Shown: positions 11,601 through 63,293 of the stretch, in pieces
Layout of the letters: every line of letters starts with the position of its first letter
Position numbering within the stretch: position 1 is the stretch's first letter
Source: Clostridia bacterium
GTDB taxonomy: Bacteria > Bacillota > Clostridia > Christensenellales > CAG-138
Assembly: GCA_017523925.1 (NCBI GenBank)
Contig: JAFWVQ010000047.1
Coordinates: 7,482 to 71,481 of the forward strand
DNA: 64,000 bases
Reading direction: 5' to 3'
Translations under genes and position numbers: made by a program
Notes under the pieces: model-generated
The model's database searches: none
The model's input: the letters and a program-made list of their open reading frames with translations, nothing else
Told to the model about the DNA's origin: nothing

Positions 11601-13736
11601 AAGCAGGGCGTTAAGAACAAGGACTACGCGCATCTGATCGTGGATACCTATTATAAGGATGCGGGCGACGGCGAGGCCGTTATCCTGCACCAGATCCCGG
11701 TGCTCCGCATCGTGGACATGAACTGGGCGGATTACGACGTGTATATCACCGCGGTTTACGACAAGCTCTTCGACCATCTGCCCAAGCCCAAGGGCGTGCA
11801 GAGCGATGAAACGAGCCTTGAAGGACTCAAGATCCCCGGCCTGCCCGAGGCGGAATACGAGCTTACGCGCGTTGATCCCGAGGGAACGCCGGGCGAGAGC
11901 ATCGAGCCCTCCAAGGCGGCGCCCGCCTACGGCAGCTTCGACGTTTATCTCGACGCCGTTCGCGTTTACGAGCCGCGCACCAAGACCGGCATCACCGCGA
12001 TCGACAGGCTTGCCTATCAGGCGGCGAACGAATACAACCCCACCTACCGCCAGATCAGGGATATACTGCTCGATCCCGAGCAGTATGAAGGCGGCAACGT
12101 CAATATCGACGGAGTGCTGTATATCGACGGCCAGGGCGGCATAGTCAACGTTGAAAAATACGAGGCGCACGGCCCGAACAACGAGACCTATCTCGCGCCC
12201 GCCGAGAAGCATTCGGACGGCACCTCCACCGAGCGCGCGTTCGCCTTCACCATCAAGGAGTGGGACAACGCAAAGTCCGGGCTGCATATCAGCGCGAAGG
12301 CGCCCTACGGCACCGTGCATCTGCACGTCAACGGCGAGCACGTTGCGGTGGTCAAGTCCGCGACCGAGATGTATTACGACGTTACCGATATAATCAGAAG
12401 GACGAACGGCTTCATCCACGGCGAGAACACGCCGAACGGCCACGTGGTCATTCAGGCGTATCTCGACCCCAACGGCCCCGACCCCGTCGTAACGGCGGCG
12501 CCTCCCACCCTTGCTCCGGGTCAGACCGCGACCCCAGAGCCGAGCGAAACGCCCTACGCGGCGCCCGATCCCGCAACGCACAACGTGCTATCGCTTGTGA
12601 ACATCAAGTTCATCCCCGAGCAGGATGCTGTGCTGCCCGATCCCACGCCCACGCCAGATCCCACGCCCGTTCCCGATCCCACGCCCACGCCGGCCGAGAA
12701 TTACCATCTGGTTAGGTTCGCCGATGCCGATGAGAACGGCACGCCCGGCGATGTCGTGAAGGAAGTTTGGGTACGGCACGGCGATCGGCTCTTTGAAGGG
12801 CTGGAGCTGCCCGATTACGGCGAAAACGGTACGAACTTCTACGATCCGGACACAGAAACCATTCGCTTCACCTGGCCCACCGTTCCGGCTGCGCCCGCGG
12901 GCTTGATCAACAACGTGAACAACGGCTATGGCGGTTGGAACTACAACAACGAGCCGATATACGGGGACAGGACCATCTGCCCGGCCCGCGAGAGCGCATC
13001 GCTGGATAAAGCGCGCGTGACCTTCACCGTGAACGGCAATGCGAATATGCAGCTTCTTATAAGCAGCGATCTTACCACCGGCACCATTCCCGCTGCGCCT
13101 GCGGGTCCTTCAAACCGCACGACTCAGCATAACGCGATGAGCGATGCAAACCTGCCCTATATGCTCCCCGGCCCCACGAAGAACGACGTTTACACCACCG
13201 AAGACGCATTCGGCGAGATCGAGGTGGCTCCGGGAACGTACAGGTTCGGCGTGTTCGCCTTGCTTGGAGGCAATACGTGGTATATGTTCCCCGGCTGCGT
13301 TGCCGAGATAACGCTGGAGGCAGGAGACACGCTCAATGTGTCGTTCAACCCGGATACGGGATTTGATTTCCTGCACACGAGCGCTGCCAACCCCATCGTG
13401 ATTTCCGCGACAGCCCATAACGGCGAAGGCGCGCCCGTGACCTACGGCAGCATCGCCCACAGCGTTCGCGGCGAGGCGGGGGAGAGCGATTGCGTTGCGT
13501 TCGTCTCCTCGGATACCTTCCTCTTTGCGGAGGCGCTGCTCGTGGGCAAGCCCGGCGACGCCAACCACGACCGTGAGATCGACCTTATGGACGCGCTGCT
13601 CATAATGCGCCATGCCTTGGGCGAGGACTGCGGGTTCGATCTGTATGAGCTGTACTGTGCCGATCTCAATAAGGACGGCGCGATAGATCTTCTCGATGCG
13701 GTGTCCGTTATGAGAGCATCGCTGATAACGGAATGA
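8670..13736 (+). CDS. large secreted von Willebrand factor A domain protein with C-terminal type-I dockerin
   Basis: Signal peptide and VWA MIDAS 'DIILLLDQSYSMAD'. The C-terminal dockerin has duplicated Ca-binding segments 'DANHDREIDLMDALLIMRHALG' and 'DLNKDGAIDLLDAVSVMRASL'. Confidence 0.8.
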   Translation: MHTNKTFTKALACFLALVMVFGAFASINGATVPAAAAEGMRSGVDNSYTQGNNENAVLTKTAELTEDGTYRIDLSAFTKGDVVVEAEPMDIILLLDQSYSMADTGSFTYVNSAGQTVTEYYTCDHTAAVRQAASALIDRIHAQAVQYDVEHRMAIAAYGCENSRIAQELAGRIPYTGSELYVGSAAYRFSGRSTVFGTDVVYERNRNTGTVTRTEGNSHYHYNPNTYFNELDAGGDYTGYPNSSAQAHYDDCMLSLNTQVDALKASLQTYNPDKANENERAGTAMQVGMKMVEGILDAYKPNPETHENMYRVGNEWKNRKKVVIVFTDGYVGESSFNPNWANECIKSAFRIKGDTYGEPATIFTVGLVFERMNDAIYSQLKFYAPYGDYYDTETWFGPRYVDGGIWNSDAYSTGKVTYEFLGELFPRYYYSGVGQEQDPHRGLLNQYLSYISSNYIPKPGSSIPASAIYYYEDDRDLTTWEGGNWVTTHIHKMQLQLEDLSAWWDESLTPNTQPYPGHPGIIKNNYYIDTNNALDETSQNGELNIARLVDAFDLITTETTTVTRELLDVNAVLRDALSEHFKMPEDFGLDNIEIKVVPFTGNIVNGEYIFDEESARDLFPTPNGKAANVRFDVTTGVITVTGYDYAQCIEGRAGGSKIVVTLSGIEALSDTVGMDIPTNDPTQTGIYEGNDIWDPYEDPEAPENPIDPGDPGTMPDKDPMLYFPLPKVDIRERYVVYDFCRPVEEEDPENFFGENGDVIELLALGECYKKQDPNAYQEQFVKRDGANDTLYIAQKHNSNGARFEIKQISYDDFEIGALLKCDPNKNDGIEYEWCKLTFLPATNVHYEETMLRYSSGDAQDAINYDYAHWLELGGVNCSWQQGGGGSIAAQQSTANLLYGYEASYDRYGNSGNSDSSGSAAHAIVDAEYAQQVKDGVKQWPTAHFRYTGTGFDIISRSGANTGVLAVDVVPYGAPRNYKQGVKNKDYAHLIVDTYYKDAGDGEAVILHQIPVLRIVDMNWADYDVYITAVYDKLFDHLPKPKGVQSDETSLEGLKIPGLPEAEYELTRVDPEGTPGESIEPSKAAPAYGSFDVYLDAVRVYEPRTKTGITAIDRLAYQAANEYNPTYRQIRDILLDPEQYEGGNVNIDGVLYIDGQGGIVNVEKYEAHGPNNETYLAPAEKHSDGTSTERAFAFTIKEWDNAKSGLHISAKAPYGTVHLHVNGEHVAVVKSATEMYYDVTDIIRRTNGFIHGENTPNGHVVIQAYLDPNGPDPVVTAAPPTLAPGQTATPEPSETPYAAPDPATHNVLSLVNIKFIPEQDAVLPDPTPTPDPTPVPDPTPTPAENYHLVRFADADENGTPGDVVKEVWVRHGDRLFEGLELPDYGENGTNFYDPDTETIRFTWPTVPAAPAGLINNVNNGYGGWNYNNEPIYGDRTICPARESASLDKARVTFTVNGNANMQLLISSDLTTGTIPAAPAGPSNRTTQHNAMSDANLPYMLPGPTKNDVYTTEDAFGEIEVAPGTYRFGVFALLGGNTWYMFPGCVAEITLEAGDTLNVSFNPDTGFDFLHTSAANPIVISATAHNGEGAPVTYGSIAHSVRGEAGESDCVAFVSSDTFLFAEALLVGKPGDANHDREIDLMDALLIMRHALGEDCGFDLYELYCADLNKDGAIDLLDAVSVMRASLITE

Positions 13737-15773: not shown

Positions 15774-15960
15774 TTGGATTTTCCTCCTTGTCACAGTTTC
15801 AAACAAATATCCCCCGGCGGGACCACCGGGGGCGAGGAATAGCATATTTACCCATACGGGAATAAATCAAGCTTTATCTTCACCTCGGCGGGATATTGAG
15901 CCGAAAATCGGCACCTGCTGTCTTTGGCGGATATTTATTTGCGCGAATATTATAAACGCT
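15774..15960 (-). promoter_or_regulatory. probable rplJ (L10) autoregulatory leader region
   Basis: Inferred from position upstream of rplJL. The structure was not verified. Confidence 0.25.
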
Positions 15961-33905: not shown

Positions 33906-35174
33906 ATGAAAAAAAGATTTTTTGCGTTTATACTGCTTCTTGCGCTCCTCGTTCTGCCGAGCCTGACGGCGCTTGCTTCGGGCGGCGCGGATGCATACGT
34001 CATCGATGAGCGCGGCAAGCTCTCCTCAACTCAGATCGAGCAGCTCTCCGAGAAGGCGAAGCTGATCGAGGCCGAGCAGGGCTTCACGCCGATGTTTGCG
34101 ATCGTTGAGGATGCGGGCGGCGACGTGACGGCCTACCTTGAAAGGCTCTACACAGAACACCACGGCGGCGAAAACGGTCTCATCATGGGCTACAGCAACG
34201 TTGAGAATAAGTGGAGCGCCGCAGCCTTCGGGCTTGCGCTCGATTCGCTGACCGACAGCGATATAGAGCAGCTTTGGGACGTTTACGATAAATCCGGAAC
34301 CTACGACGGCGGCATAAGCGATTATTTCGACAGCGCCTCGCGCGTCTACGCGGAGCGCACGGGCGGCAGAGTGCCGGAGGCGGTCGCCGCTTCCACACCG
34401 TCGCCCACCAAGGCGCCCGCCGAGACGGCAGCGCCCGTTGCGACGGCAGCGCCCGTTATCAGCGGCAATCGCGTTGAAGATGCGGCCGACCTGCTCACCC
34501 CGGAGCAGGAGGAGGCGCTCGCTCAAAAGCTCGATGAATACAGCCGCAAGCACGACTGCGATATCGTGGTCATCACGGCAAAGAGCCTCGGCAGCAAATC
34601 CGCAAGGCTTTTCGCGGCGGATTACTATGAGCTTTGCGGCTACAATATGAGCGGCGGCATGGTTATGATGGTTTGCCCCGAGGCGCGCGACTATGCGTTC
34701 GTCGGAACCGGCAAGTGCTACAGCATAACGAACGACAGCAAGGTGATAGATCATCTTGAGGACGTTGTGGTTGCCGATCAGCTCAAATACGATCACTACA
34801 ACACAGCCTTCAACGTTTTCGCCGATAAGTGCGACGAATTTTTGACGAACGTTGAGAACGGCAAGCAGCCCTATAAGAAGAACCTTATCTCCACCACTTT
34901 TGCGGCGATAGGCTCGGCGGTGGTCGGCCTTATCAGCGGCGGCAGCGCGGCGGGCGGCATGGCAAGTAAGCTCAAGAGCGTTCATCATAAGTACAATGCA
35001 TCCGATTACGTTGAAAAGGGCAGCCTCCGCATGACCGATCAGAGCGAGATGTTCCTCTATACAAACGTGGTCAAGACCGAGATCCCGCGCGATGACGACC
35101 GTTCAAGCGGCTCGAGCGGCGGCTTCTCCTCGTCCTCCGGCTCAAGCTGGAGCGGCTCGAGCGGAAAGTATTAA
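33906..35174 (+). CDS. TPM-domain (YgcG-like) protein, two TPM repeats, C-terminal TM plus Gly/Ser tail
   Basis: Start at M31, with SD 'agggagggcgaagcgATG'. Signal peptide, 2x TPM_phosphatase-like domains, a TM helix and an 'SSGSSGGFSSSSGSSWSGSSGKY' tail. Confidence 0.7.
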   Translation: MKKRFFAFILLLALLVLPSLTALASGGADAYVIDERGKLSSTQIEQLSEKAKLIEAEQGFTPMFAIVEDAGGDVTAYLERLYTEHHGGENGLIMGYSNVENKWSAAAFGLALDSLTDSDIEQLWDVYDKSGTYDGGISDYFDSASRVYAERTGGRVPEAVAASTPSPTKAPAETAAPVATAAPVISGNRVEDAADLLTPEQEEALAQKLDEYSRKHDCDIVVITAKSLGSKSARLFAADYYELCGYNMSGGMVMMVCPEARDYAFVGTGKCYSITNDSKVIDHLEDVVVADQLKYDHYNTAFNVFADKCDEFLTNVENGKQPYKKNLISTTFAAIGSAVVGLISGGSAAGGMASKLKSVHHKYNASDYVEKGSLRMTDQSEMFLYTNVVKTEIPRDDDRSSGSSGGFSSSSGSSWSGSSGKY

Positions 35175-35220
35175 ACCGCCCGGCGGAGCTGCAAAACCGA
35201 ATAAACCGATGCAAATAAAT

Positions 35221-35249
35221 CGCCCCCGGCAGAGAACTGTCGGGGGGCG
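35221..35249. terminator. hairpin 'cgcccccggcagagaactgtcggggggcg' (copy 1 of 3)
   Basis: A G+C-rich perfect stem. The same hairpin recurs at ~36935 and, inverted and followed by TTTTATTTAT, at 63254-63293. Confidence 0.55.
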
Positions 35250-35271
35250 ATTGAGTAAGGGCTAACACTAT

Positions 35272-35970
35272 TTACTTCTTACTTCCAAGCACTTTCCTAA
35301 TATAGGGGTTGGAGGAATCGAGGTGCTTTTTGAAATCGTTGATAGTTATTCGAGGATCGCTTACGCCGAGATGAAACTGTATATAAGCGCCGCCATAGTC
35401 CTTGAAGATAAAAACATTTCCGTCGTCCAACAATTTATAAAACTCCTCTTCATGCTTAGGATAAGGATAAGGGAAATCGCAATTGCTGTATTTTTTATCG
35501 GTCAATTCGTTCCCATATAAATCCGCAAATCTATCATCATCCACGATCATTCTGCAAATAAGCATTATAGGGCTATAATCTGGGATAATAAAGGTGCAGT
35601 CAAGCTGATAAAGATGACAGTTTTCAATCGTTGTTTCTTGTCCGGTTTTTTTTGCTTTTACCCTTATGTATTCATGAGAATCTACGGCCTTTATGATTTC
35701 TATTATTCGGCGGTTTATGCTGTTCCAATCAATTTGCACCAATGCGCTATCCTTTGCCCTTTTTGAGAACAGCCATGGAATAAGGCCGAAGCAGATAATA
35801 CCAATTATGATGATAACGGGCAGCAGAAAATCTGTGCTGGATATGGGCGTCATTCCGAAATCCACCATTAAACCGTCAACTACATATAGCACTCCGAACA
35901 GTATCGCAAATGAGGCGATACCCGTTATACAGCCTATTGCGCCGCTTCTGTCCTTTTTATTATTGTCCAT
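35272..35970 (-). CDS. hypothetical membrane protein (island cargo)
   Basis: 232 aa with 2-3 N-terminal TM helices and a ~150-aa soluble domain. AT-rich codon usage. Confidence 0.55.
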   Translation of the reverse strand: MDNNKKDRSGAIGCITGIASFAILFGVLYVVDGLMVDFGMTPISSTDFLLPVIIIIGIICFGLIPWLFSKRAKDSALVQIDWNSINRRIIEIIKAVDSHEYIRVKAKKTGQETTIENCHLYQLDCTFIIPDYSPIMLICRMIVDDDRFADLYGNELTDKKYSNCDFPYPYPKHEEEFYKLLDDGNVFIFKDYGGAYIQFHLGVSDPRITINDFKKHLDSSNPYIRKVLGSKK

Positions 35971-36045
35971 TTCTACCTCCTGTAAAAATCAAACCCGCCC
36001 AAACCACATTTTATGCGGAATGGGCAGGAAAAGGTGCGGTGTTCA

Positions 36046-36183
36046 TCAGTCGTCATAATGTTTGCATTCCGAAACCTCGTCGGGATCGACGTAGGTGCCG
36101 TACCATTCGCAATACCACTTATAACCCTTCCTCTCGGCAGAGTTGCAGTGCTTGCAGTACTTGCATTTTACATATTCGTCCAT
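36046..36183 (-). CDS. small Cys-rich (zinc-ribbon-like) peptide, 45 aa (island cargo)
   Basis: MDEYVKCKYCKHCNSAERKGYKWYCEWYGTYVDPDEVSECKHYDD. SD AGGAGG 8 nt upstream. A TTGACT-17-TATAAT promoter lies inside the longer track ORF just upstream. Confidence 0.45.
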   Translation of the reverse strand: MDEYVKCKYCKHCNSAERKGYKWYCEWYGTYVDPDEVSECKHYDD

Positions 36184-36347
36184 CGTGAAGCCCTCCTTTC
36201 GTAAAAAATGGTAAAAACTCTTGTGCTGTGCATCAAGCTTGCGCCAATAGTGCATTATAGACAGATTATATTCAATCTTTGAGTAAAAGTCAATACTCAA
36301 ATAATGAGTATGCCACCATCGGCATATACTTTATTTGAGGTGGTAAA

Positions 36348-36572
36348 ATGGATTATCGGGAAAGGCTCAGGCAGGTGCGCGAGGATCGCGATCTGACGCA
36401 GGCGGAGATAGGCAGGCTTTTGAACAAGTCCCAGCAGGGATACAATCATATCGAGGCGGGGCGTGCGGAGCTGAAAATAGATGATCTGAAAAAGCTTTGC
36501 CGCTTTTATGGGCTCTCGGCGGATTACCTTATCGGCCTGAGCGATGAAATGAAAACGGAAATGCAGAAATAA
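36348..36572 (+). CDS. XRE-family HTH transcriptional regulator (island cargo), divergent from the Cys-peptide/membrane-protein pair
   Basis: 74 aa, 'LTQAEIGRLLNKSQQGYNHIEAGRAELKIDDLKKLCRFYGLSADYLIG' (Cro/C1 HTH). Confidence 0.75.
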   Translation: MDYRERLRQVREDRDLTQAEIGRLLNKSQQGYNHIEAGRAELKIDDLKKLCRFYGLSADYLIGLSDEMKTEMQK

Positions 36573-36588
36573 GCCGAGCGCGGCGGGA

Positions 36589-36807
36589 GGCATGGCAAGC
36601 ATGCTCAAGAGCGTTCGCCATAAGACGGGCGCTTCGGACTACGTTGAAAAGGGCAGCCTCCGTATGACCGATTAGAGCGAGATGTTCCTCTATACAAACG
36701 TGGTGAAGACCGAGATCCCGCGCGATGACGACCGTTCAAGCGGCTCGAGCGGCGGCTTCTCCTCGTCCTCCGGCTCAAGCTGGAGCGGCTCAAGCGGAAA
36801 GTATTAA
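36589..36807 (+). pseudogene. duplicated, inactivated 3' fragment of the TPM-domain gene
   Basis: Near-identical to 34956-35174 but carries an in-frame TAG ('gaccgattagagcgag'). Confidence 0.7.
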
Positions 36808-36989
36808 GAATACAAAACACAAAACGCAAAAAGCAGCGCTTCGGAAAACCGGAGCGCTGCTCTTTCTGCATCCCGCCGCCGCTCGGCGGAGCTGTAATAC
36901 CGAATAAACCCGATGCAGCTTGATGCAAATGGAACGCCCCCGGCAGAAAACTGTCGGGGGCATTCGCGCTCTCTCAAAGCGATAATACT

Positions 36990-38303
36990 TTAACTTTGCA
37001 GCAGCTCCTTCACGCGCACCGCCGAGGCGATGTTCAGCTCGCATTTGCTCTGCGCGCGAAGCTCCGTGCAGGCGCCGCGCACGGTCTCCTTCGGGATATA
37101 CGCGCCCTCATCCTCGAGCAGCAGCATCACCGTGCGAACGAATTCATCCTCGTCCATCTCGCGGAGCTCGAGCGTTATCTCAAAGAAGCTCTGCATCGTC
37201 GGCACTGCGCTCGTTGCCGAAGCGAGCACGTTCATCGGAAGCATCGGCTCGCATATGCCGTTCAGCGCATGAGGATTAAGATCGTCCATCAGAAGCATGA
37301 ATTTCACGGGCTGATCCCGCGGCTTTTCAAGCAGCGCAATTATCTCCGAACTTTTAACGTAGTTCGGCACGAATACCGTGTGCAGGCTCGGCAGCTCGTC
37401 CATCAGTTCGAGCATAAGCGTGGTTTTGCCGCTGCCCTGCCTGCCACAAAGAAGCATGGGCTTTGCGCTCTCGCCTGCAAGGAAGGCGGTCGCGTTTGCG
37501 CGAAGCGCGTCAAGCTCCGCTTCCGCAACACAAGCGCAGTTTCCGGCGCGAAGCTCGGGCAGGGGCTTAAGCTCCCCTTCGAAGTAAAAATGCCTGTATT
37601 TAAGGAAATCTCCGCAGCCGTTTCGGTTGAAAAAGTGCCAAAGCTCCTCGGTCAGCTCGCCCCAGTTTTCCTCATCGAGGAATCTTTGATACATCCCTTC
37701 AAGCTCATTGTCCGCGCAGTAGGCGTCCCTAAGCTCAAATTCGCCGTAGTACCAGCAGCTATCGGGCGGCGCAAGCCAGCTGCGCTGCGCCTGATTGGGT
37801 TCGCGCCCAATGGATGAGCCACCCCCGCCCGACCAAGCCGCTTGAGCGAATTTTGATGCGCTGTCCGGCGAAGGGTTCGCCGCCGCTGCCTCTGCGATAA
37901 GCTTATACATAGTGCCTTCGTCAAGCTCGGATATGACCTTCAGCGCGTTAAGATCGCGCCGCATCGCGAGCATCAGCGCCTCGTCGCGCCTGCCGGAAGC
38001 GGCGGCCTTTGAAAAGGCGTTCTCGGTTATAAGGACGGCATGCAGAATAAAGTCGAGCATAATGTCGCCGGTGACGCGCCTTGCGCCGCAGCAAAGCAGG
38101 ATCCTTGTGACCTCGTCGGCCTGAGGGCGCGCCCATACCGGTTGGGCATCCTTTAATAAGTCCGCAAATTGAAATAATGTTTGATACCACAAATCAAAGT
38201 AAGTAGGTTGTATTGTAAACGGCTTTCGCACGACTGTCAGCGAGTTGATCGCTGAAATAAGCCTGTCCGCCGCCATCTCGACCCTTTCAAGTCTGCTGCT
38301 CAT
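36990..38303 (-). CDS. DUF815/COG2607-type AAA+ ATPase
   Basis: Start at M19 (MSSRLERV), with GGAGG upstream. P-loop 'CGRQGSGKTTLMLEL'. Confidence 0.6.
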   Translation of the reverse strand: MSSRLERVEMAADRLISAINSLTVVRKPFTIQPTYFDLWYQTLFQFADLLKDAQPVWARPQADEVTRILLCCGARRVTGDIMLDFILHAVLITENAFSKAAASGRRDEALMLAMRRDLNALKVISELDEGTMYKLIAEAAAANPSPDSASKFAQAAWSGGGGSSIGREPNQAQRSWLAPPDSCWYYGEFELRDAYCADNELEGMYQRFLDEENWGELTEELWHFFNRNGCGDFLKYRHFYFEGELKPLPELRAGNCACVAEAELDALRANATAFLAGESAKPMLLCGRQGSGKTTLMLELMDELPSLHTVFVPNYVKSSEIIALLEKPRDQPVKFMLLMDDLNPHALNGICEPMLPMNVLASATSAVPTMQSFFEITLELREMDEDEFVRTVMLLLEDEGAYIPKETVRGACTELRAQSKCELNIASAVRVKELLQS

Positions 38304-38543
38304 ATTTCCTCCATCTGCGCCGATGCCGCTGCTTCTTATCGGCGCATATTTTTTCAAAATAGTATATCACATTTTCACGTTTCGTGCAATACAAGCTCGA
38401 CCGTTTTTCTTCGGTTTTGGGCGCTGTTTTATATTGACTTTACCGCTCGAAAAATGTAAAATCAAAGCTGTTCGGGCATTTTCCATCCTGCCCGAAACTG
38501 AACACGGGCGCGGCGGCACTTCCGCGCCAAAATGGAGCAAAGT

Positions 38544-39323
38544 ATGAAGTTTATCCCGCTTTTCAGCGGTTCATCGGGCAATTCGTCCTATCTTGAGGTC
38601 GGCTCTACCCGCCTGCTTATCGATGCGGGCATGACGGGCAAGGCGATCACCGAGGCGCTTTGCCGCATTTCGGTTTCCCCCGAAAAGCTGAACGGCATCC
38701 TCGTTACGCATGACCACGTTGACCACACGCGCGGCGTTGGCATCCTTTCAAGGAAGTACGGCCTGCCCGTTTACGCAAACGCCGGAACGCTCAAGGCGAT
38801 GGAGCCGATCACGAAGGAGCTTCCGTATTCAAACACCCGCCTGTTTCAAACGGACGAGGATTTCTATATCGGCAGCATAAATATTTTCCCTTTCAAAACG
38901 CCGCACGACGCTGCCGAATCGGTGGGTTTCGTTTTCACCGCGGGCGAAAAAAAGCTTACCTATATGACCGATATAGGCTGTATGCGCGAGAATATGCTCA
39001 ATAAAGCGGCGGGCTCGAATCTTGTTTTCATCGAGGCGAACCACGATATCGAGATGCTCAAGCGCGGCCCCTACCCCTACCCGCTCAAGCAGCGCATACT
39101 CTCCGATCACGGGCATCTTTCCAATGAAAACTGCGGCAAAGCGCTCGTTAAGCTCTATGAAACCGGCGTGCGCTTCGCGGTGCTCGGCCATCTTTCCAAG
39201 GAAAACAACACCGAGTATGAGGCGTACAACACGGTTTCGCGCGTGCTCGAGGAGGCGAATATCCCCGATATGCGCATAGTGGTCGCCAAGCGCGGCGAGA
39301 TAACGGGAATTTTCGAGCTGTAA
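38544..39323 (+). CDS. yycJ: MBL-fold metallo-hydrolase YycJ/WalJ-like
   Basis: 'HDHVDH' metallo-beta-lactamase motif. Conserved position upstream of rlmH. Confidence 0.75.
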   Translation: MKFIPLFSGSSGNSSYLEVGSTRLLIDAGMTGKAITEALCRISVSPEKLNGILVTHDHVDHTRGVGILSRKYGLPVYANAGTLKAMEPITKELPYSNTRLFQTDEDFYIGSINIFPFKTPHDAAESVGFVFTAGEKKLTYMTDIGCMRENMLNKAAGSNLVFIEANHDIEMLKRGPYPYPLKQRILSDHGHLSNENCGKALVKLYETGVRFAVLGHLSKENNTEYEAYNTVSRVLEEANIPDMRIVVAKRGEITGIFEL

Positions 39324-39344
39324 TACCGTTTTTTGAGGTGCAAT

Positions 39345-39824
39345 ATGAAGCTTCGCGTGATCTGCGTTGGCAGGCTCAAGGAAAAATTCTATACGGATGC
39401 TGTGAACGAGTTCAAAAAGCGGCTTTCGCGCTTTGCGGAGGTCGAGATAGTGGAGCTTGCGGATGAAAAAGCGCCCGAAAAGCTCAGCGATGCGGAGCTT
39501 GAGCAGATCAAGCTTGCCGAGGGGCGGCGCATACTTGCAAAGCTTGCGGACGGTGAAACGGCCGTGGCGCTCGATATTCGGGGCGTTCAGCTCTCCTCGA
39601 CCGAGCTTGCCGAGAAGCTGAAAAACCTGATGCTCGAGGGCAAAAGCCGCATCGCGTTCATCATCGGCGGCTCGAACGGGCTTTCAAGCGAGGTGCTCGC
39701 CCGCGCCGATTTCAAGCTGAGCTTTTCGAAGATGACCTTCTCGCATCAGATATTCAGAATAATGCTGATGGAGCAGCTCTATCGCGCGTTCAAGATAATA
39801 AATAACGAGCCGTACCACAAATAG
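39345..39824 (+). CDS. rlmH: 23S rRNA (pseudouridine1915-N3)-methyltransferase RlmH
   Basis: SPOUT fold, 'IAFIIGGSNGLS...FSKMTFSHQIFRIMLMEQLYRAF'. Confidence 0.85.
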   Translation: MKLRVICVGRLKEKFYTDAVNEFKKRLSRFAEVEIVELADEKAPEKLSDAELEQIKLAEGRRILAKLADGETAVALDIRGVQLSSTELAEKLKNLMLEGKSRIAFIIGGSNGLSSEVLARADFKLSFSKMTFSHQIFRIMLMEQLYRAFKIINNEPYHK

Positions 39825-59329: not shown

Positions 59330-60706
59330 TTACTCCTTTACCGCGCTTACCTCGCAAACTCCGTAATATTTAAGGCACGCGATCGCCGCTTCATCGAGCC
59401 TTTCGCCCGCGATCGCTATCGGCACGGCGGGCGGGCAGGCGCAGTGATCGAGCGCGAGGATGCGTCCCGAGGCGTTCTCGACTGGCACCCGCTCCTGCGG
59501 CGCAAGCACCGCCTCCCGAATGGATAGCGCGCGCTCAAGGCGGGGCGCGGCGGGCGGTTTTTCCTTTATTGGAGCGCGTTTTTCTATGGAAAGCAGCGCT
59601 TTTTCGATGCGGCGGAGCGCGGCTTCGTCCGTTTGCATCGAGAGCATAAGCACCGTGAAATCGGGATCGGCGAACTCGCACTCGATGCCGTTTTCGCGCA
59701 GATGCTCCGCAAGCTCATGCCCCGTATAGCCCTTGCTTTTCGGCGCAAGCGTCAGCTTCAGGCGCTCGCTCCCGATGAGCGCATAGCCGAAGCTTTCAAG
59801 CCTTTGTTTGAGCTTTTCGATGCGCTGAGCCGTTTTTTCAAGCTTTTTTTCGTAGCCTGCGCCGCAGATTTCGTTGAAGGCATCCAGCGACTGCATGATC
59901 AGATACGACGGGCTTGTGGAAGCAAAGAGCGAAAGCGCCTTCTCCGCCATCGCGGAAAAGAGCTTTGGAGCTTCGGCATTTATATGAAGATACGCCGCCC
60001 CGGTAAGGCAGGGCAGGGTCTTATGAGCGCTGTCGCAGCAGATATCGGCGCCGAGCGCCATGGGGTGCAGGCAGGGCTTCAAAAAGCGCAGATACGCGCC
60101 ATGGGCGTTGTCCACCATAAGCGGAACGCCGTGAACCTTGCAGACCCTTGCAAGCGCGGCGATATCCGCGATGTTTCCGAGATAATCGGGCGAGGTGATA
60201 TAGACCGCGATCGGCTTTTCGCCCTTTTCACCGCAGCTTGAAAGCGCGGCTTCGAGCGTCTTCTCATCCACGGTGCAGCCGAGCAGCCCGTTTTCCGCGC
60301 CGTTTTCCTCATTTTCACTTTGATAGAGCCAATCTATATCAAGATCGAGCAGCGCGGCGGCGGAGATCAGCGTTTTATGCGCGTTTCTGCCCGCAAGCAC
60401 GGTTTTCGACCCGCTTCCGCGCTCCTTCGCATGCATTTGGGCAAGAAAAAGCATTGCGCGGATGCATAAAGACGAGCCCTCGGCGGAATAGAAGGTATCG
60501 CCCGTTCCGAAGATATCGGCGGCGATGCGCTCGCTTTTTTTGATGATGCCGCTTGCGCCGTATAATTCGTCCGCGCCGCTTATCTCGGTTATATCCCGCG
60601 CCTCGCAGCCCAAAAAAGCGGCCCCCTTGTGCCCGGGCATATGCGCCCGCACGGTGCCGCTTTTCGCGTAGTTATCCACAAAATCGCAGATGGGCGTTTT
60701 GCTCAT
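59330..60706 (-). CDS. Orn/Lys/Arg decarboxylase-family PLP-dependent enzyme (small form)
   Basis: 'MPGHKG' N-terminal hallmark and PLP-lysine 'DSAHKTLP'. The start overlaps the maturase stop (ATGA). Confidence 0.75.
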   Translation of the reverse strand: MSKTPICDFVDNYAKSGTVRAHMPGHKGAAFLGCEARDITEISGADELYGASGIIKKSERIAADIFGTGDTFYSAEGSSLCIRAMLFLAQMHAKERGSGSKTVLAGRNAHKTLISAAALLDLDIDWLYQSENEENGAENGLLGCTVDEKTLEAALSSCGEKGEKPIAVYITSPDYLGNIADIAALARVCKVHGVPLMVDNAHGAYLRFLKPCLHPMALGADICCDSAHKTLPCLTGAAYLHINAEAPKLFSAMAEKALSLFASTSPSYLIMQSLDAFNEICGAGYEKKLEKTAQRIEKLKQRLESFGYALIGSERLKLTLAPKSKGYTGHELAEHLRENGIECEFADPDFTVLMLSMQTDEAALRRIEKALLSIEKRAPIKEKPPAAPRLERALSIREAVLAPQERVPVENASGRILALDHCACPPAVPIAIAGERLDEAAIACLKYYGVCEVSAVKE

Positions 60707-62076
60707 TCCATATTCTCCAAAAGCCTTGAGGCTTCAAGCATTATCGCGCACTCCATGCGCTTTTTGAACAGCTCGCAGCCCGGCTTATACACGCCGCGTA
60801 TGCTGCCCGTGGCGTGGTAGGCGTTCGCCGCGCAGCCGCCGGAGCAGTACAGCTTCGCCCAGCAGTCGCGGCAGTCCTCGCGCGCGTACACGTTGCATGA
60901 GGCGAATTCGTCGCGCACGGCGGTATTCGTTACGCCCTCGAAAACACTGCCGAGGCGGTAGCTTTCGTCGCCCACGAACTGGTGGCAGGGGTAGAGATCG
61001 CCCCAGGGGGTAACGGCCATATACTCCGTGCCGCTGCCGCAGCCCGAGATGCGCTTATAGATGCAGGGGCCGCCGGTGAGGTCGATCATATAATGATAGA
61101 ATGTAAACGGTTTTCCTTCGGCGCGGCAGGCTTTCATCAGCTCCGCAAGCTCCTCATACTGGCGCATGACCAGCTCGATATCGTCTTTCGTCAGCGCGCT
61201 CGGATCGTCCTCGGCGCAGACCACGGGCTCCATCGAAAGCTCGGTGAAGCCAAGGTCGAGCATCGCCTTTACGTCCTCCAAAAAATCGGGGTTGTGGTGG
61301 GTGAACGTGCCGCGCATATAGTAACCCTTGCCGCCGCGCGATCTAACGAGCTTTTGGAATTTCGGCACTATTTTATCGAAGCTGCCGTTGCCCGCATAGT
61401 CCACGCGGAAGCGGTCATGCACCTCCTTGCGCCCGTCAAGGCTCAGAACCACGTTGCTCATCTCGCGGTTTGCAAAGTCGATAACGTCGTCGTCGATCAA
61501 AACGCCGTTCGTGGTGAGCGTGAAGCGGAAATTCTTGTTGTGCTGCTTCTCGATGCTTCGCGCGTACTCGGTCAGCCGCTTTACAACGTCAAAATTCATC
61601 AGCGGTTCGCCGCCGAAGAAATCGACCTCGAGATTATGCCTCGTGCCCGAGTTTTCGATGAGGAAATCGAGCGCCCGTTTTCCGACCTCGAAGCTCATCA
61701 GCGCGCGTTCGCCGCTATATTTGCCCTGAGAGGCGAAGCAGTAGGAGCAATTCAGGTTGCAGGTATGCGCCACGTGCAGGCAAAGCGCCTTCACTACGCC
61801 CGCCGTTCGCGCCTTGAGTTCGCCCGCCATCGGCTCGAAATCGTCGGGCGCGAAGAGCTTGCCCGCCGCTTTGAGCTCCGCAATATCGTTATAACATTCC
61901 TCAACTTCGTTTTCGGATACGCCGAAGCGCGCGGAGAGCTCCTCAGCCAGCTCCTCCCGCGTTTTTTCCTCGAACCCGCCGATCAGCTCATACGCAAGTT
62001 CGTCCACCGCGTGAACGCTTCCCGAGCAGGTGTCGATGACCATATTCATTCCGCCGAGTTTATATCGATGTATCAT
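60703..62076 (-). CDS. SCIFF radical SAM maturase (thioether-forming rSAM/SPASM)
   Basis: 'CNLNCSYCF' cluster and C-terminal SPASM cysteines ('CGSGTEYMAVTPWGDLYPC...CRDCWAKLYCSGGC'). Lies immediately downstream of a SCIFF precursor. Confidence 0.8.
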   Translation of the reverse strand: MIHRYKLGGMNMVIDTCSGSVHAVDELAYELIGGFEEKTREELAEELSARFGVSENEVEECYNDIAELKAAGKLFAPDDFEPMAGELKARTAGVVKALCLHVAHTCNLNCSYCFASQGKYSGERALMSFEVGKRALDFLIENSGTRHNLEVDFFGGEPLMNFDVVKRLTEYARSIEKQHNKNFRFTLTTNGVLIDDDVIDFANREMSNVVLSLDGRKEVHDRFRVDYAGNGSFDKIVPKFQKLVRSRGGKGYYMRGTFTHHNPDFLEDVKAMLDLGFTELSMEPVVCAEDDPSALTKDDIELVMRQYEELAELMKACRAEGKPFTFYHYMIDLTGGPCIYKRISGCGSGTEYMAVTPWGDLYPCHQFVGDESYRLGSVFEGVTNTAVRDEFASCNVYAREDCRDCWAKLYCSGGCAANAYHATGSIRGVYKPGCELFKKRMECAIMLEASRLLENME

Positions 62077-62146
62077 TTATTAAATCATTATTTGAAACGC
62101 CCTTAGCGTTTCATCCTAAATTTCTTCATTAGCAAAGCGGCTTCAT

Positions 62147-62173
62147 TAGTAAAAAATGCCGCCCGAAGGCGGC
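62147..62173 (-). terminator. intercistronic hairpin (attenuator) between SCIFF peptide and maturase
   Basis: The minus strand reads 'gccgccttcgggcggcattttttact'. Confidence 0.55.
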
Positions 62174-62185
62174 AAATCCTTGCTT

Positions 62186-62338
62186 TTACTCCGCCTTCTC
62201 GGCGTTCTCGCACTGCTGGTTCGCAATGCCGCAGCTGGTCTTGCAGGCGCTCTGGCAGGAGGTCTGGCATTCGCCGCAGCCGCCGTTCTTCGCGCTTTCG
62301 CAAAGGGTCTTTTCGTTAAGAGTAACGATGTGTTTCAT
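62186..62338 (-). CDS. SCIFF ranthipeptide precursor (six cysteines in forty-five residues)
   Basis: Manual translation gives MKHIVTLNEKTLCESAKNGGCGECQTSCQSACKTSCGIANQQCENAEKAE. GGAGG 8 nt upstream. Below the track cutoff. Confidence 0.85.
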   Translation of the reverse strand: MKHIVTLNEKTLCESAKNGGCGECQTSCQSACKTSCGIANQQCENAEKAE

Positions 62339-62372
62339 TTTGGTATCCTCCGAAAAAGATTTTAACTGACTA

Positions 62373-62401
62373 ATTATAGCATAGTAAAGCCGTTAAGTCA
62401 A
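62373..62401 (-). promoter_or_regulatory. promoter TTGACT-17-TGcTATAAT for the SCIFF operon
   Basis: The reverse complement is 'TTGACTtaacggctttactaTGCTATAAT'. Confidence 0.5.
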
Positions 62402-62495
62402 ATAAAAAAAGGATTTTTCATTTTTTCTTGACAAGCGTGCGCTTCTTGATGTATCTTTTAACCTAATTAAGCTCGATAAAAGAGAGGATAAACGC

Positions 62496-63167
62496 ATGGT
62501 CAACCTCGGCAACGATTGGGACGCCATCCTTGCGGATGAATTCGAAAAGGAATACTATAAGGAGCTTCGCCGCTTCCTTGTGAACGAATACCGCACGCGC
62601 ACGATCTATCCGAATATGAACGACATATTCAATGCGCTCAAGTTCACCTCGTTTGAGGATACGAAGGCGGTCATCCTCGGGCAGGACCCCTACCACGGCG
62701 AACATCAGGCGCACGGGCTCTGCTTCTCGGTGCTGCGCGGCATCGAGCCGCCGCCGTCCCTCAAGAATATCTATAAGGAGCTTGCTTCGGACGTGGGCTT
62801 CGTTCCCCCGATGCACGGCGAGCTGACGCATTGGGCGGAGCAGGGCGTGCTGATGCTGAACGCGGTTTTGACCGTTCGCGCACATCAGGCGAATTCCCAC
62901 AAGGGCTGCGGCTGGGAAAGGTTCACCGACCGCGTTATCGCCGAGCTGAACAATAAAAAGACGCCCGTCGTTTTCCTGCTTTGGGGCGCGAACGCAAGGC
63001 AGAAGGCGAGGGTCATAACGAACCCGATCCACGTTAAGCTCGAGACCGTTCACCCGAGCCCGCTCTCGGCGTACAACGGCTTTTTCGGCTGCAAGCATTT
63101 TTCAAAATGCAACGAGATACTTGAAAAAAGCGGGCAATCGCCGATAGATTGGCAACTACCCGATTAA
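62496..63167 (+). CDS. ung: uracil-DNA glycosylase (family 1)
   Basis: 'GQDPYHG' and 'HPSPLSA' motifs. Confidence 0.9.
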   Translation: MVNLGNDWDAILADEFEKEYYKELRRFLVNEYRTRTIYPNMNDIFNALKFTSFEDTKAVILGQDPYHGEHQAHGLCFSVLRGIEPPPSLKNIYKELASDVGFVPPMHGELTHWAEQGVLMLNAVLTVRAHQANSHKGCGWERFTDRVIAELNNKKTPVVFLLWGANARQKARVITNPIHVKLETVHPSPLSAYNGFFGCKHFSKCNEILEKSGQSPIDWQLPD

Positions 63168-63235
63168 ATAGTGAATAGAGAATAATGAATAGTGAATAGT
63201 TGAGGATGAAATTCCTGCGGAATTTCTTCGATCAT
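63166..63235 (+). repeat. TAGTGAA-heptamer array element, copy J
   Basis: 'TAAatagtgaatagagaataatgaatagtgaatagttgaggatgaaattcctgcggaatttcttcg'. Confidence 0.8.
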
Positions 63236-63253: not shown

Positions 63254-63293
63254 CCGCCCCCGACAGTTCTCTGCCCGGGGCGGTTTTATTTAT
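63254..63293 (+). terminator. rho-independent terminator (inverted copy of the 35221 hairpin)
   Basis: 'ccgcccccgacagttctctgcccggggcggTTTTATTTAT'. Confidence 0.7.

Follow-up and report, generated by a model that had tools for sequence, protein, structure and literature searches.

In a 64-kb stretch of DNA from an uncultured ruminant-gut Clostridium (contig JAFWVQ010000047.1; hereafter, the window), the gene for a TPM-domain protein is followed by a short, low-GC island of three genes, beyond which the last codons of the TPM gene occur a second time. One island gene encodes a small XRE-family regulator. The other two, transcribed divergently from it, encode a 45-aa cysteine-containing peptide (pep45) and then a 232-aa membrane protein (mem232), which is the gene order that a sequence-only reading of the window had described. 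Comparison with related loci, which we label L001–L114, leads us to favor, if only on balance, the view that the island is a strain-variable three-gene cassette at a recombination hotspot (the TPM 3′ end), which would be mobilized by homologous recombination of the host, with the second TPM fragment acting as a portable homology arm.

The island lies between two copies of the TPM gene end

The TPM gene closes an SPFH/zinc-ribbon/TPM operon that is kept in L003–L006 and L010–L012. The end of the functional gene constitutes repeat copy 1 (c1), while the orphan fragment on the far side of the island constitutes copy 2 (c2; Table 1). The coding parts of the two copies, 231 nt in length, share 92% identity. 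With the downstream hairpin, the repeated region comprises 34944–35250 and 36577–36962, additional repeated pieces being found at 35176–35207/36879–36910 and 35208–35246/36922–36960. The TPM 3′ end and its downstream hairpin are thus duplicated as direct repeats, as the earlier reading had proposed, and no third copy of the TPM end occurs within the window. Because its 3′ end is duplicated at the cassette borders, the TPM gene remains intact. The CAG-to-TAG change that had been noticed in c2 is present at 36673–36675, c1 having CAG at the matching codon, and the orthologous c2 fragments in L003, L009, and L011 are uninterrupted open reading frames (ORFs) of 68–76 aa. The arrangement is not an assembly artifact of the window, since it recurs in several independent assemblies (L001, L002, L109, L110, and L112).

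Table 1. Features of the island and its borders in the window, and layouts of related loci.
Feature	Position	Strand	Description
TPM-domain gene	33906..35174	+	422 aa; PF04536, E=1.7e-28; target of the 3′-end duplication
Repeat copy 1 (c1)	34944..35174	+	Functional TPM gene's final 76 codons and stop; begins right after the TPM membrane helix
Region 3′ of c1	35176..35250	+	Includes hairpin h2 (35221–35249); h1 missing here (deleted)
mem232	35272..35970	-	232 aa; predicted N-terminal two-helix membrane hairpin and ~155-aa C-terminal α/β domain
mem232 hypervariable patch	35776..35975	-	Helix 1, outer loop, helix 2; 45–75% identity to L003
Stem-loop between pep45 and mem232	35984..36028	-	Terminator-like, with U-run; minimum free energy −30.3 kcal/mol, z = −3.0
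pep45	36046..36183	-	45 aa, acidic; first gene of the cargo operon; strong ribosome-binding site (AAAGGAGGG)
Control region	36265..36310		Cargo promoter (− strand) and two palindromic operators
XRE regulator gene	36348..36572	+	XRE-family helix-turn-helix regulator, 74 aa, DNA-binding domain only; HTH_3, E=1.8e-14; divergent from cargo
Repeat copy 2 (c2)	36577..36807	+	Orphan TPM 3′ fragment; begins 4 nt past the XRE stop
Region 3′ of c2	36808..36962	+	h1 (36828–36865), 11-nt duplication, second h2 (36935–36962)
Layout of L003 and L004			TPM, 116-aa gene, h2, mem235, pep45, XRE, c2 (intact 68-aa ORF), M20 peptidase
Layout of L011 and many similar contigs (L102–L108)			TPM, h1, h2, 48-aa pep homologue, unrelated soluble 152-aa protein, XRE, c2 (72 aa), h1, second XRE–lipoprotein pair, M20
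Layout of L005 and L006			TPM, VWA, h2, mem261, pep45, XRE, ECF transporter; no c2
Layout of L012			TPM operon without XRE module; homologue of 116-aa gene only
Layout of L010			TPM operon without module

Relative to c1, c2 is followed by 70 extra nt (36808–36877), which contain a hairpin named h1, and by an 11-nt duplication. This difference had been taken for a 75-bp insertion in the second copy, but its polarity is the reverse. In L011, L012, and L114, a hairpin homologous to h1 of the window stands directly after the stop codon of the functional TPM gene, and L003 has a divergent hairpin at the same position. Since the functional TPM genes of relatives carry a hairpin right after the stop, the window's c1 has evidently lost h1, the ancestral TPM terminator, rather than c2 having gained it. 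The other hairpin, h2, adjoins the 3′ end of the cargo in L003, L005, and L011 as well, and it probably terminates mem232 transcription because it is followed by a T-run on the minus strand. A third copy of h2, inverted, is found at 63254–63282, directly past the UDG gene. The OKR_DC/radical-SAM/SCIFF/UDG block of which that gene is part (window 59334–63177, L005 282–4144, 87.6% identity) has opposite orientations relative to the TPM module in the two genomes, so that a ~26.3-kb inversion, whose end points coincide with inverted h2 copies, separates the window from L005/L006.

As for base composition, the island (35263–36576, 1,314 nt) has 42.5% GC vs. 55.7% in its flanks. It is hence lower than its surroundings, as had been claimed, although not by the 40 vs. 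62% then given. Gene by gene, the anomaly lies chiefly in mem232, which is the lowest-GC 700-nt stretch of the entire 64 kb, with a GC content of 0.40 and a GC content at third codon positions (GC3) of 0.45, while the neighboring genes have GC3 values of 0.68–0.81. The pep45 and XRE genes are just mildly low (GC3 of 0.64–0.65). The island is compositionally foreign, mainly in mem232, and the original statement of a foreign composition holds to that extent.

The island is shared by several lineages and differs in content

Locus contexts were compiled for the three close clusters of mem232 homologues (P0001–P0003), the four more distant homologues (P0009–P0012) being left aside. All recovered loci either adjoin the SPFH/zinc-ribbon/TPM operon or lie on short contigs with the same XRE–pep45 module. 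The segment is indeed an insertion relative to some relatives, since the TPM operons of L012 and L010 lack the module. A recent insertion private to the window is not what the data show: every base of the joint between the XRE gene and c2 (AAATAAGCCG followed by AGCGCGGCGGGAGGCATGGCAAGC) agrees among the window, L003, L009, and L011, and the joint is also found on L102–L108. Given this identity across lineages, the joint evidently arose once. At least three other lineages have the joint, with cargo that differs among them. What adjoins it on the right differs too: the window has a gene for a DUF815 ATPase, L003 one for an M20 peptidase, and L011 an additional XRE gene with a lipoprotein gene.

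The window and L003 provide the most direct argument for exchange. Their island DNA is 97–100% identical overall (100% for pep45 and 99.1% for the XRE gene), as opposed to 90–91% for the SPFH and zinc-ribbon genes and 86.5% for the 5′ part of the TPM gene. The exceptions within the island are a 200-nt patch of mem232 (45–75%) and the leader beside the promoter (90%). Because the cassette is so much more similar than the flanking core genes (~90%) in two distant genomes, this points to a recent exchange of the island between lineages. In L003, L011, and L012, both flanks are 94–97% identical while the cassette content is different, which amounts to variable content at a fixed position beside a conserved gene, with no mobility genes found. 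The conservation is one-sided, since the right flank differs in every lineage and the orphan TPM fragment stands in its place. Nor do these three loci share one allele class over the last two-thirds of the TPM gene, and the breakpoints fall within the gene, where a left crossover in the TPM body would put them. More generally, the linker and second half of the TPM gene have diverged much further than the remainder of the operon (the block at 34200–34399 of the window is only 66% identical to L003), and the TPM alleles form two diverged classes inside one species-level group.

An obvious objection is that the arrangement might simply be ancestral in related genomes. This is half true: it is shared, but it is also mosaic and far more conserved than the core genome, a pattern that fits exchange better than vertical descent. 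Pursued to its end, the objection becomes an in-place rearrangement, in which an ancestral tandem duplication of the segment running from the TPM 3′ end through the cargo to the XRE gene would have lost its second cargo, leaving the orphan fragment behind in a module that is old and immobile. The same joint in several lineages does imply one ancient event, and such a history would agree with the lack of mobility genes, with the presence of the module at the same locus without duplication in L005/L006, and with the evident gene conversion between c1 and c2. However, the equal divergence of island and flanks that it entails is already contradicted for the window–L003 pair by the identities given above (97–100% vs. 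~90%), and it leaves unexplained why the right flank is different in every lineage despite the same joint, and why genomes at 94–97% identity vary in the presence, absence, and cargo of the module. The circle or tandem junctions described below, and the standing of mem232 as the most compositionally foreign stretch of the window, speak against it as well, and we consider it unlikely.

A contig suggests a circular or tandem form

L111, a contig of 1,688 nt from sample SAMN15830027, has a 55-nt terminal overlap, which leaves a 1,633-nt unit equal to the start-to-start spacing of c1 and c2. It is a circular permutation of the island with exactly one repeat unit, and this repeat is a hybrid. Up to 35072, each of the 17 diagnostic sites, the TAG among them, has the c2 state. 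From 35159 on, the repeat is of c1 type and runs without h1 straight into h2 and mem232. The crossover lies inside 86 nt of exact identity between c1 and c2 (35073–35158) and hence fits homologous recombination. The same c2-to-c1 junction is seen in L113, which comes from a second sample (SAMN15830028). L111 could stem from an excised circle, from a tandem copy, or from a loop in the assembly, and a real junction seems to us the likelier outcome. The 30-nt terminal overlap of L009, also considered as a sign of a circle, was set aside as uninformative since it coincides exactly with a branch point of the graph, located at the stop codon. It would fit the end of a k=31 unitig, which we take to be the assembler's setting.

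Host recombination could mobilize the cassette

These observations can be joined into a simple model. A single ancestral event would have attached the final 76 codons of a TPM gene to the XRE gene end, creating c2. The resulting unit (TPM 3′ end, terminator, cargo, XRE, and c2) could then have spread among lineages via homologous recombination of the host, with the TPM gene body as left arm and the orphan c2 as right arm, the latter pairing with the recipient's own TPM 3′ end. Either a linear donor would recombine at the TPM body and at c2, or a circle would integrate by a single crossover. The unit could in this way enter any genome with a TPM gene, regardless of the downstream sequence, and the variable right flank would be explained because either route rebuilds the structure whatever adjoins it downstream. 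Recombination between c1 and c2 would yield the 1,633-nt circle, a deletion, or a tandem amplification, with no need for an integrase.

Several points weigh against this model. The same-species empty site of the window lineage (TPM–h1–h2–DUF815) was not recovered, and an exact look-up of the window's 362-aa zinc-ribbon protein, made in search of it, found nothing on record. In L005/L006, the module resides downstream of a VWA gene without c2, which shows that c2 is not required for residence near TPM. In each genome, c1 and c2 share 98.4–98.5% identity over their 3′ halves, evidence of gene conversion that blurs their history. The ratio of nonsynonymous to synonymous polymorphism (pN/pS) in c2 is 0.19–0.27, no higher than in the functional copies. 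Accordingly, the fragments are recent, are kept up by conversion, or have a function, and c2 might serve as a small ORF in its own right and not as a mere homology arm. The 86-nt identity between c1 and c2 exceeds the k of 55 deduced from the 55-nt terminal overlap of L111, so L111 and L113 could be de Bruijn-graph loops. An isolated graph cycle can arise if the coverage of the island exceeds that of the variable flanks in a mixed-strain sample. Finally, neither natural competence nor another route of DNA uptake is known for the organism.

The layout was originally interpreted as that of an integrated element that regenerates the 3′ end of its target gene. Much of this stands, namely the insertion, the foreign composition, the duplicated TPM end, and a contig of the circularized unit, whereas site-specific integration finds no support. 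In line with the earlier reading, no integrase or transposase was detected among the three island genes and the neighboring proteins scanned (24.5–30.8, 31.3–38.4, and 39.9–47.2 kb, a few ORFs including 38532–39824 being outside the scan), and no tRNA was found. The repeats are 231–385 nt of diverged homology, 92% identical with indels, without a short att core, and a second cassette type (the 116-aa gene of L003/L012) uses a different, 25-nt junction in the same TPM tail. As to an empty site and a circular form, there are the loci without the module, L012 and L010, and the 1,633-nt permutation in L111, which is possibly an assembly loop.

The same data bear on the idea that the island is a remnant or satellite of a site-specific element (a prophage, an integrative and conjugative element, or an integrative and mobilizable element) that targeted the TPM 3′ end, with the repeats as attL and attR and an integrase lost or acting in trans. 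Such elements classically restore the 3′ end of the gene that they target, an XRE gene divergent from its cargo resembles a fragment of a lysogeny module, and L111 may be their circular form. Moreover, some pep45 homologues that occur without an XRE gene (L015 and L021) lie near apparent integrase fragments, recognized by eye. Against it stand, in addition to the lack of an integrase and of a tRNA, the long and imperfect repeats, and the second junction, the database searches: scanning IMG/VR with pep45 and mem232 profiles revealed no relatives, the island DNA has no match in phage and plasmid collections, and the XRE family is overwhelmingly chromosomal (293 metagenome matches vs. 1 close viral match). 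We therefore regard a site-specific remnant as improbable, the least credible of the origins considered here. The sole Rfam match in the window is a ribosomal protein L10 leader (15795–15945, minus strand; RF00557, 59.6 bits), which is consistent with an ordinary chromosomal context.

A bolder version of the recombination model would have a self-homing, integrase-free cassette that brings its own homology arm as a copy of the 3′ end of its target gene. Relying on host recombination only, it would cycle between the chromosome and a 1.6-kb circular or amplified form, thereby spreading an undescribed XRE-gated pair, a C4 zinc protein and a membrane-anchored effector, that acts in phage exclusion or another conflict. 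We mention this as speculation with little likelihood of being right in full. If the more modest model of exchange by host recombination is true, small cassettes spread among uncultured gut anaerobes without a recombinase of their own, by carrying a fragment of a conserved neighbor gene, and integrase-based island finders would miss such gene flow.

The locus resembles several known systems and differs from each

In behavior, the locus comes nearest to two described systems. The first is the minimal mobile elements of Neisseria, islets of variable content that lie between conserved genes and are exchanged by homologous recombination (Saunders & Snyder 2002, Snyder 2007, via PMC3787668). These also have no mobility genes, their content varies among close relatives and is near-identical in more distant genomes, and host recombination in the conserved flanks best explains the exchange. 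In contrast, only the left flank (TPM) is conserved here, and the cassette itself carries the right homology as a copy of the TPM 3′ end. Direct repeats thus border the cassette and allow it to loop out, and natural transformation is not known for this organism.

The second system is that of the orphan C-terminal modules that lie behind rhs and cdiA genes (e.g., Koskiniemi et al. 2014, PMC3967940). There too, displaced 3′ fragments of the main gene lie downstream together with accessory genes, and recombination between main gene and orphan rearranges the locus (PMC3967940). Comparable swapping is seen in L003 and L012, where the TPM tail ends ..GGGGGKF and ..SGSSGKY are exchanged between the TPM gene and a downstream small gene. 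However, the tails of c1 and c2 encode near-identical protein with no toxin domain and no domain match at all, which is not what a toxin–immunity array of the rhs/CdiA type would have. The payload lies between the repeats, not within them, and there is no evident immunity-gene logic.

Islands and prophages that integrate by means of an integrase in gene 3′ ends share the duplicated target end, the intact gene, the foreign payload, and possibly the circle with our locus, which differs by its lack of an integrase and of a short att core, by the several junction positions in the tail, and by a crossover in a long identity. Nor does it conform to a type II toxin–antitoxin pair, because the XRE gene is transcribed away from the cargo, in which no toxin domain is recognized. 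In sum, the locus does not qualify as an integrase-dependent island, a type II toxin–antitoxin pair, and any PADLOC defense system.

The XRE gene and its putative operators form a control unit

The XRE protein is an HTH_3 family member, scoring 53.9 bits against PF01381 with a cut-off of 23. Its sequence is identical in the window, L003, L009, and L011, and the exact sequence is found on at least 21 contigs. In the PDB, it is related to the PbsX-family regulator 9k3w and to the ICEBs1 Xre-family regulator 7t8i (E ~3e-4), while PADLOC models gave generic helix-turn-helix matches only, such as capH and RmrA.

The near-consensus promoter (TTGACT-17-TATAAT) and the strong ribosome-binding site that had been assigned to the cargo are both confirmed. 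The −35 box lies at 36293–36288 and the −10 box at 36270–36265, and 11 of the 12 consensus positions are matched. Two 17-bp palindromes of the form TACTCA-N5-TGAGTA, which are putative operators, are placed around it, O1 at 36269–36285 (with one mismatch in the window) and O2 at 36294–36310, so that the −35 box sits between them and the −10 box is overlapped by O1. Within the 64-kb window, the operator motif is observed once vs. 0 times expected by chance, and in 71 of the 114 fetched loci it occurs exactly once, upstream of the XRE gene. From this arrangement, the XRE protein very probably represses the cargo promoter through the two operators, and when bound to both it would hold pep45 and mem232 off. 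In aligned control regions, the left half-site of O1 (36270–36274 in the window) is ATTCA in the window, L111, and L112 and ACTCA in L003, L005, L009, L011, and L022. The ATTCA variant, directly beside the −10 box of the cargo, may weaken repression.

The regulator belongs to a small family with 73–89% identity in human-gut and rumen Clostridia, with the same double-palindrome operator ~50–85 nt upstream of the XRE start (L022–L101). The divergent genes beside these homologues are highly diverse, encoding lipoproteins, polytopic membrane proteins, cysteine-rich peptides, and zinc-ribbon membrane proteins, and a 71–74-aa protein (MSTIDFSALE...) recurs among them. Since the operator is kept beside very different divergent genes, the XRE gene and its operator evidently constitute a conserved control unit with interchangeable cargo, one that is widespread in gut and rumen Clostridia. 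It is reminiscent of XRE/Cro-C1 repressors in its single helix-turn-helix domain, its palindromic operators over a divergent promoter, and its probable autoregulation. It differs from them in that a partner like ImmA or CapP, acting as sensor or protease, is missing, pep45 being the sole candidate partner.

The cargo consists of two very rare proteins

mem232 is a membrane protein, as had been stated, and of the two to three transmembrane segments then allowed, two helices are predicted (residues 8–37 and 49–79), with basic residues flanking them on both cytoplasmic sides. In pep45, four cysteines (C7, C10, C25, and C40) are invariant in an alignment of eight homologues with 58–91% identity, which makes it a putative C4 zinc-binding module, although it has no match to zinc-ribbon models in Pfam, NCBIfam, or the PDB. 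The stem-loop between the two genes is kept in L003, and in L005 its place is taken by another hairpin with a U-run. This stem-loop possibly attenuates mem232 expression, in which case it would lower it further than repression does.

The mem232 family is very rare. Three homologous clusters (P0001–P0003) were found among 5.8 billion clustered proteins, and a profile search of 1.84 billion representative proteins gave six matches, all in the same small family and four of them new. The homology and structure searches proposed for both proteins did not reveal a function. In Pfam, NCBIfam, and PHROGs nothing rose above noise (Pfam and PHROG E values of 0.02–0.04, far below the cut-off in significance), the PADLOC-DB 2.0 defense models gave no match, and neither did the PDB in single-sequence and profile searches or in a fold comparison. 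Elsewhere, pep45 homologues are found without an XRE gene. The genes that come after them encode other small two-helix membrane proteins (as two tandem paralogues in L019), a soluble protein of 102 aa (L021), or an ADP-ribosylglycohydrolase (L015).

Two other identities were considered for the cargo. That pep45 might be a bacteriocin or a precursor of a ribosomally synthesized and post-translationally modified peptide, with mem232 as its immunity protein, is unlikely: it has no leader, a net charge of about −3, and four invariant cysteines in zinc-ribbon-like spacing, and neither a modifying enzyme nor an exporter is encoded nearby. The 152-aa cargo protein of L011, which is soluble, was rejected as a membrane-less version of the mem232 domain (hhalign probability of 0.2%).

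Neither homology nor fold comparison supplied direct evidence on what the cargo does, which weighs against any specific proposal, including our own. We tentatively propose an effector that is anchored in the membrane, kept under tight repression, and paired with a small zinc-binding protein, and that would act in conflict, for instance in phage exclusion or abortive infection. Homology neither backs nor rules against the toxin, abortive-infection, or exclusion role first suggested. At a guess, a conflict gene fits better than a housekeeping gene with the tight repression of a very strong promoter, the low GC content, the rarity, the swappable C-terminal domains, and the hypervariable outward-facing segment. 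There is a substantial possibility, short of probable, that the cargo is instead an ordinary XRE-regulated accessory pair for the envelope or for stress, one of many variable membrane or lipoprotein genes under a widespread regulator family. The very diverse genes divergent from XRE homologues with the same operator in gut and rumen metagenomes, as well as the lack of PADLOC matches for mem232 and pep45, are what such a pair would lead one to expect. The near-consensus, tightly controlled promoter, the rarity, the low GC, the hypervariable segment, the swappable C-terminal domains, and the rapid exchange are less readily accommodated, although none is decisive. As two very rare families that are tightly repressed, rapidly exchanged, and mosaic, mem232 and pep45 are reasonable candidates for an uncharacterized conflict system.

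Neighboring genes and other repeats

In L003 (10193–10543, minus strand) and L012 (3665–3904, plus strand), a small gene for a signal-peptide membrane protein directly follows the TPM gene and is fused in frame to the final 8–14 codons of the alternative TPM tail. In L003 the small gene ends ..HGGGGGKF and the TPM gene ..SGSSGKY, and the reverse holds in L012. These small genes represent the second cassette type, with its separate junction within the TPM tail. In L011, a second, unrelated XRE gene (84 aa) is divergent from a 126-aa lipoprotein gene (12823–13634) and has its own direct-repeat operator (TTAACCTGAAAYAGG, two copies). This pair separates c2 from the M20 peptidase gene, and L003, with flanks of 97% identity, lacks it. 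The VWA gene of L005 and a 688-aa gene of L010 were compared as possible descendants of the same ancestral neighbor, which was rejected as they are unrelated.

The right-hand neighbor in the window (36990–38357, minus strand) encodes a 455-aa P-loop ATPase (DUF815, E=2.3e-8), which has weak matches to the defense ATPase models mad8, BrxF, and Avs5, all far below threshold. Farther to the right, the window has a dispersed intergenic repeat in which tandem GTGAATA heptamers are followed by a hairpin of the form GAAATTCC-N4-GGAATTTC, with no Rfam family at the gathering threshold. Seven copies (39844, 40401, 41695, 47158 and 49868 on the minus strand, 58375, and 63187) all fall within 39.8–63.2 kb, vs. 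0 expected by chance, and in relatives a copy is found between the SPFH and zinc-ribbon genes.

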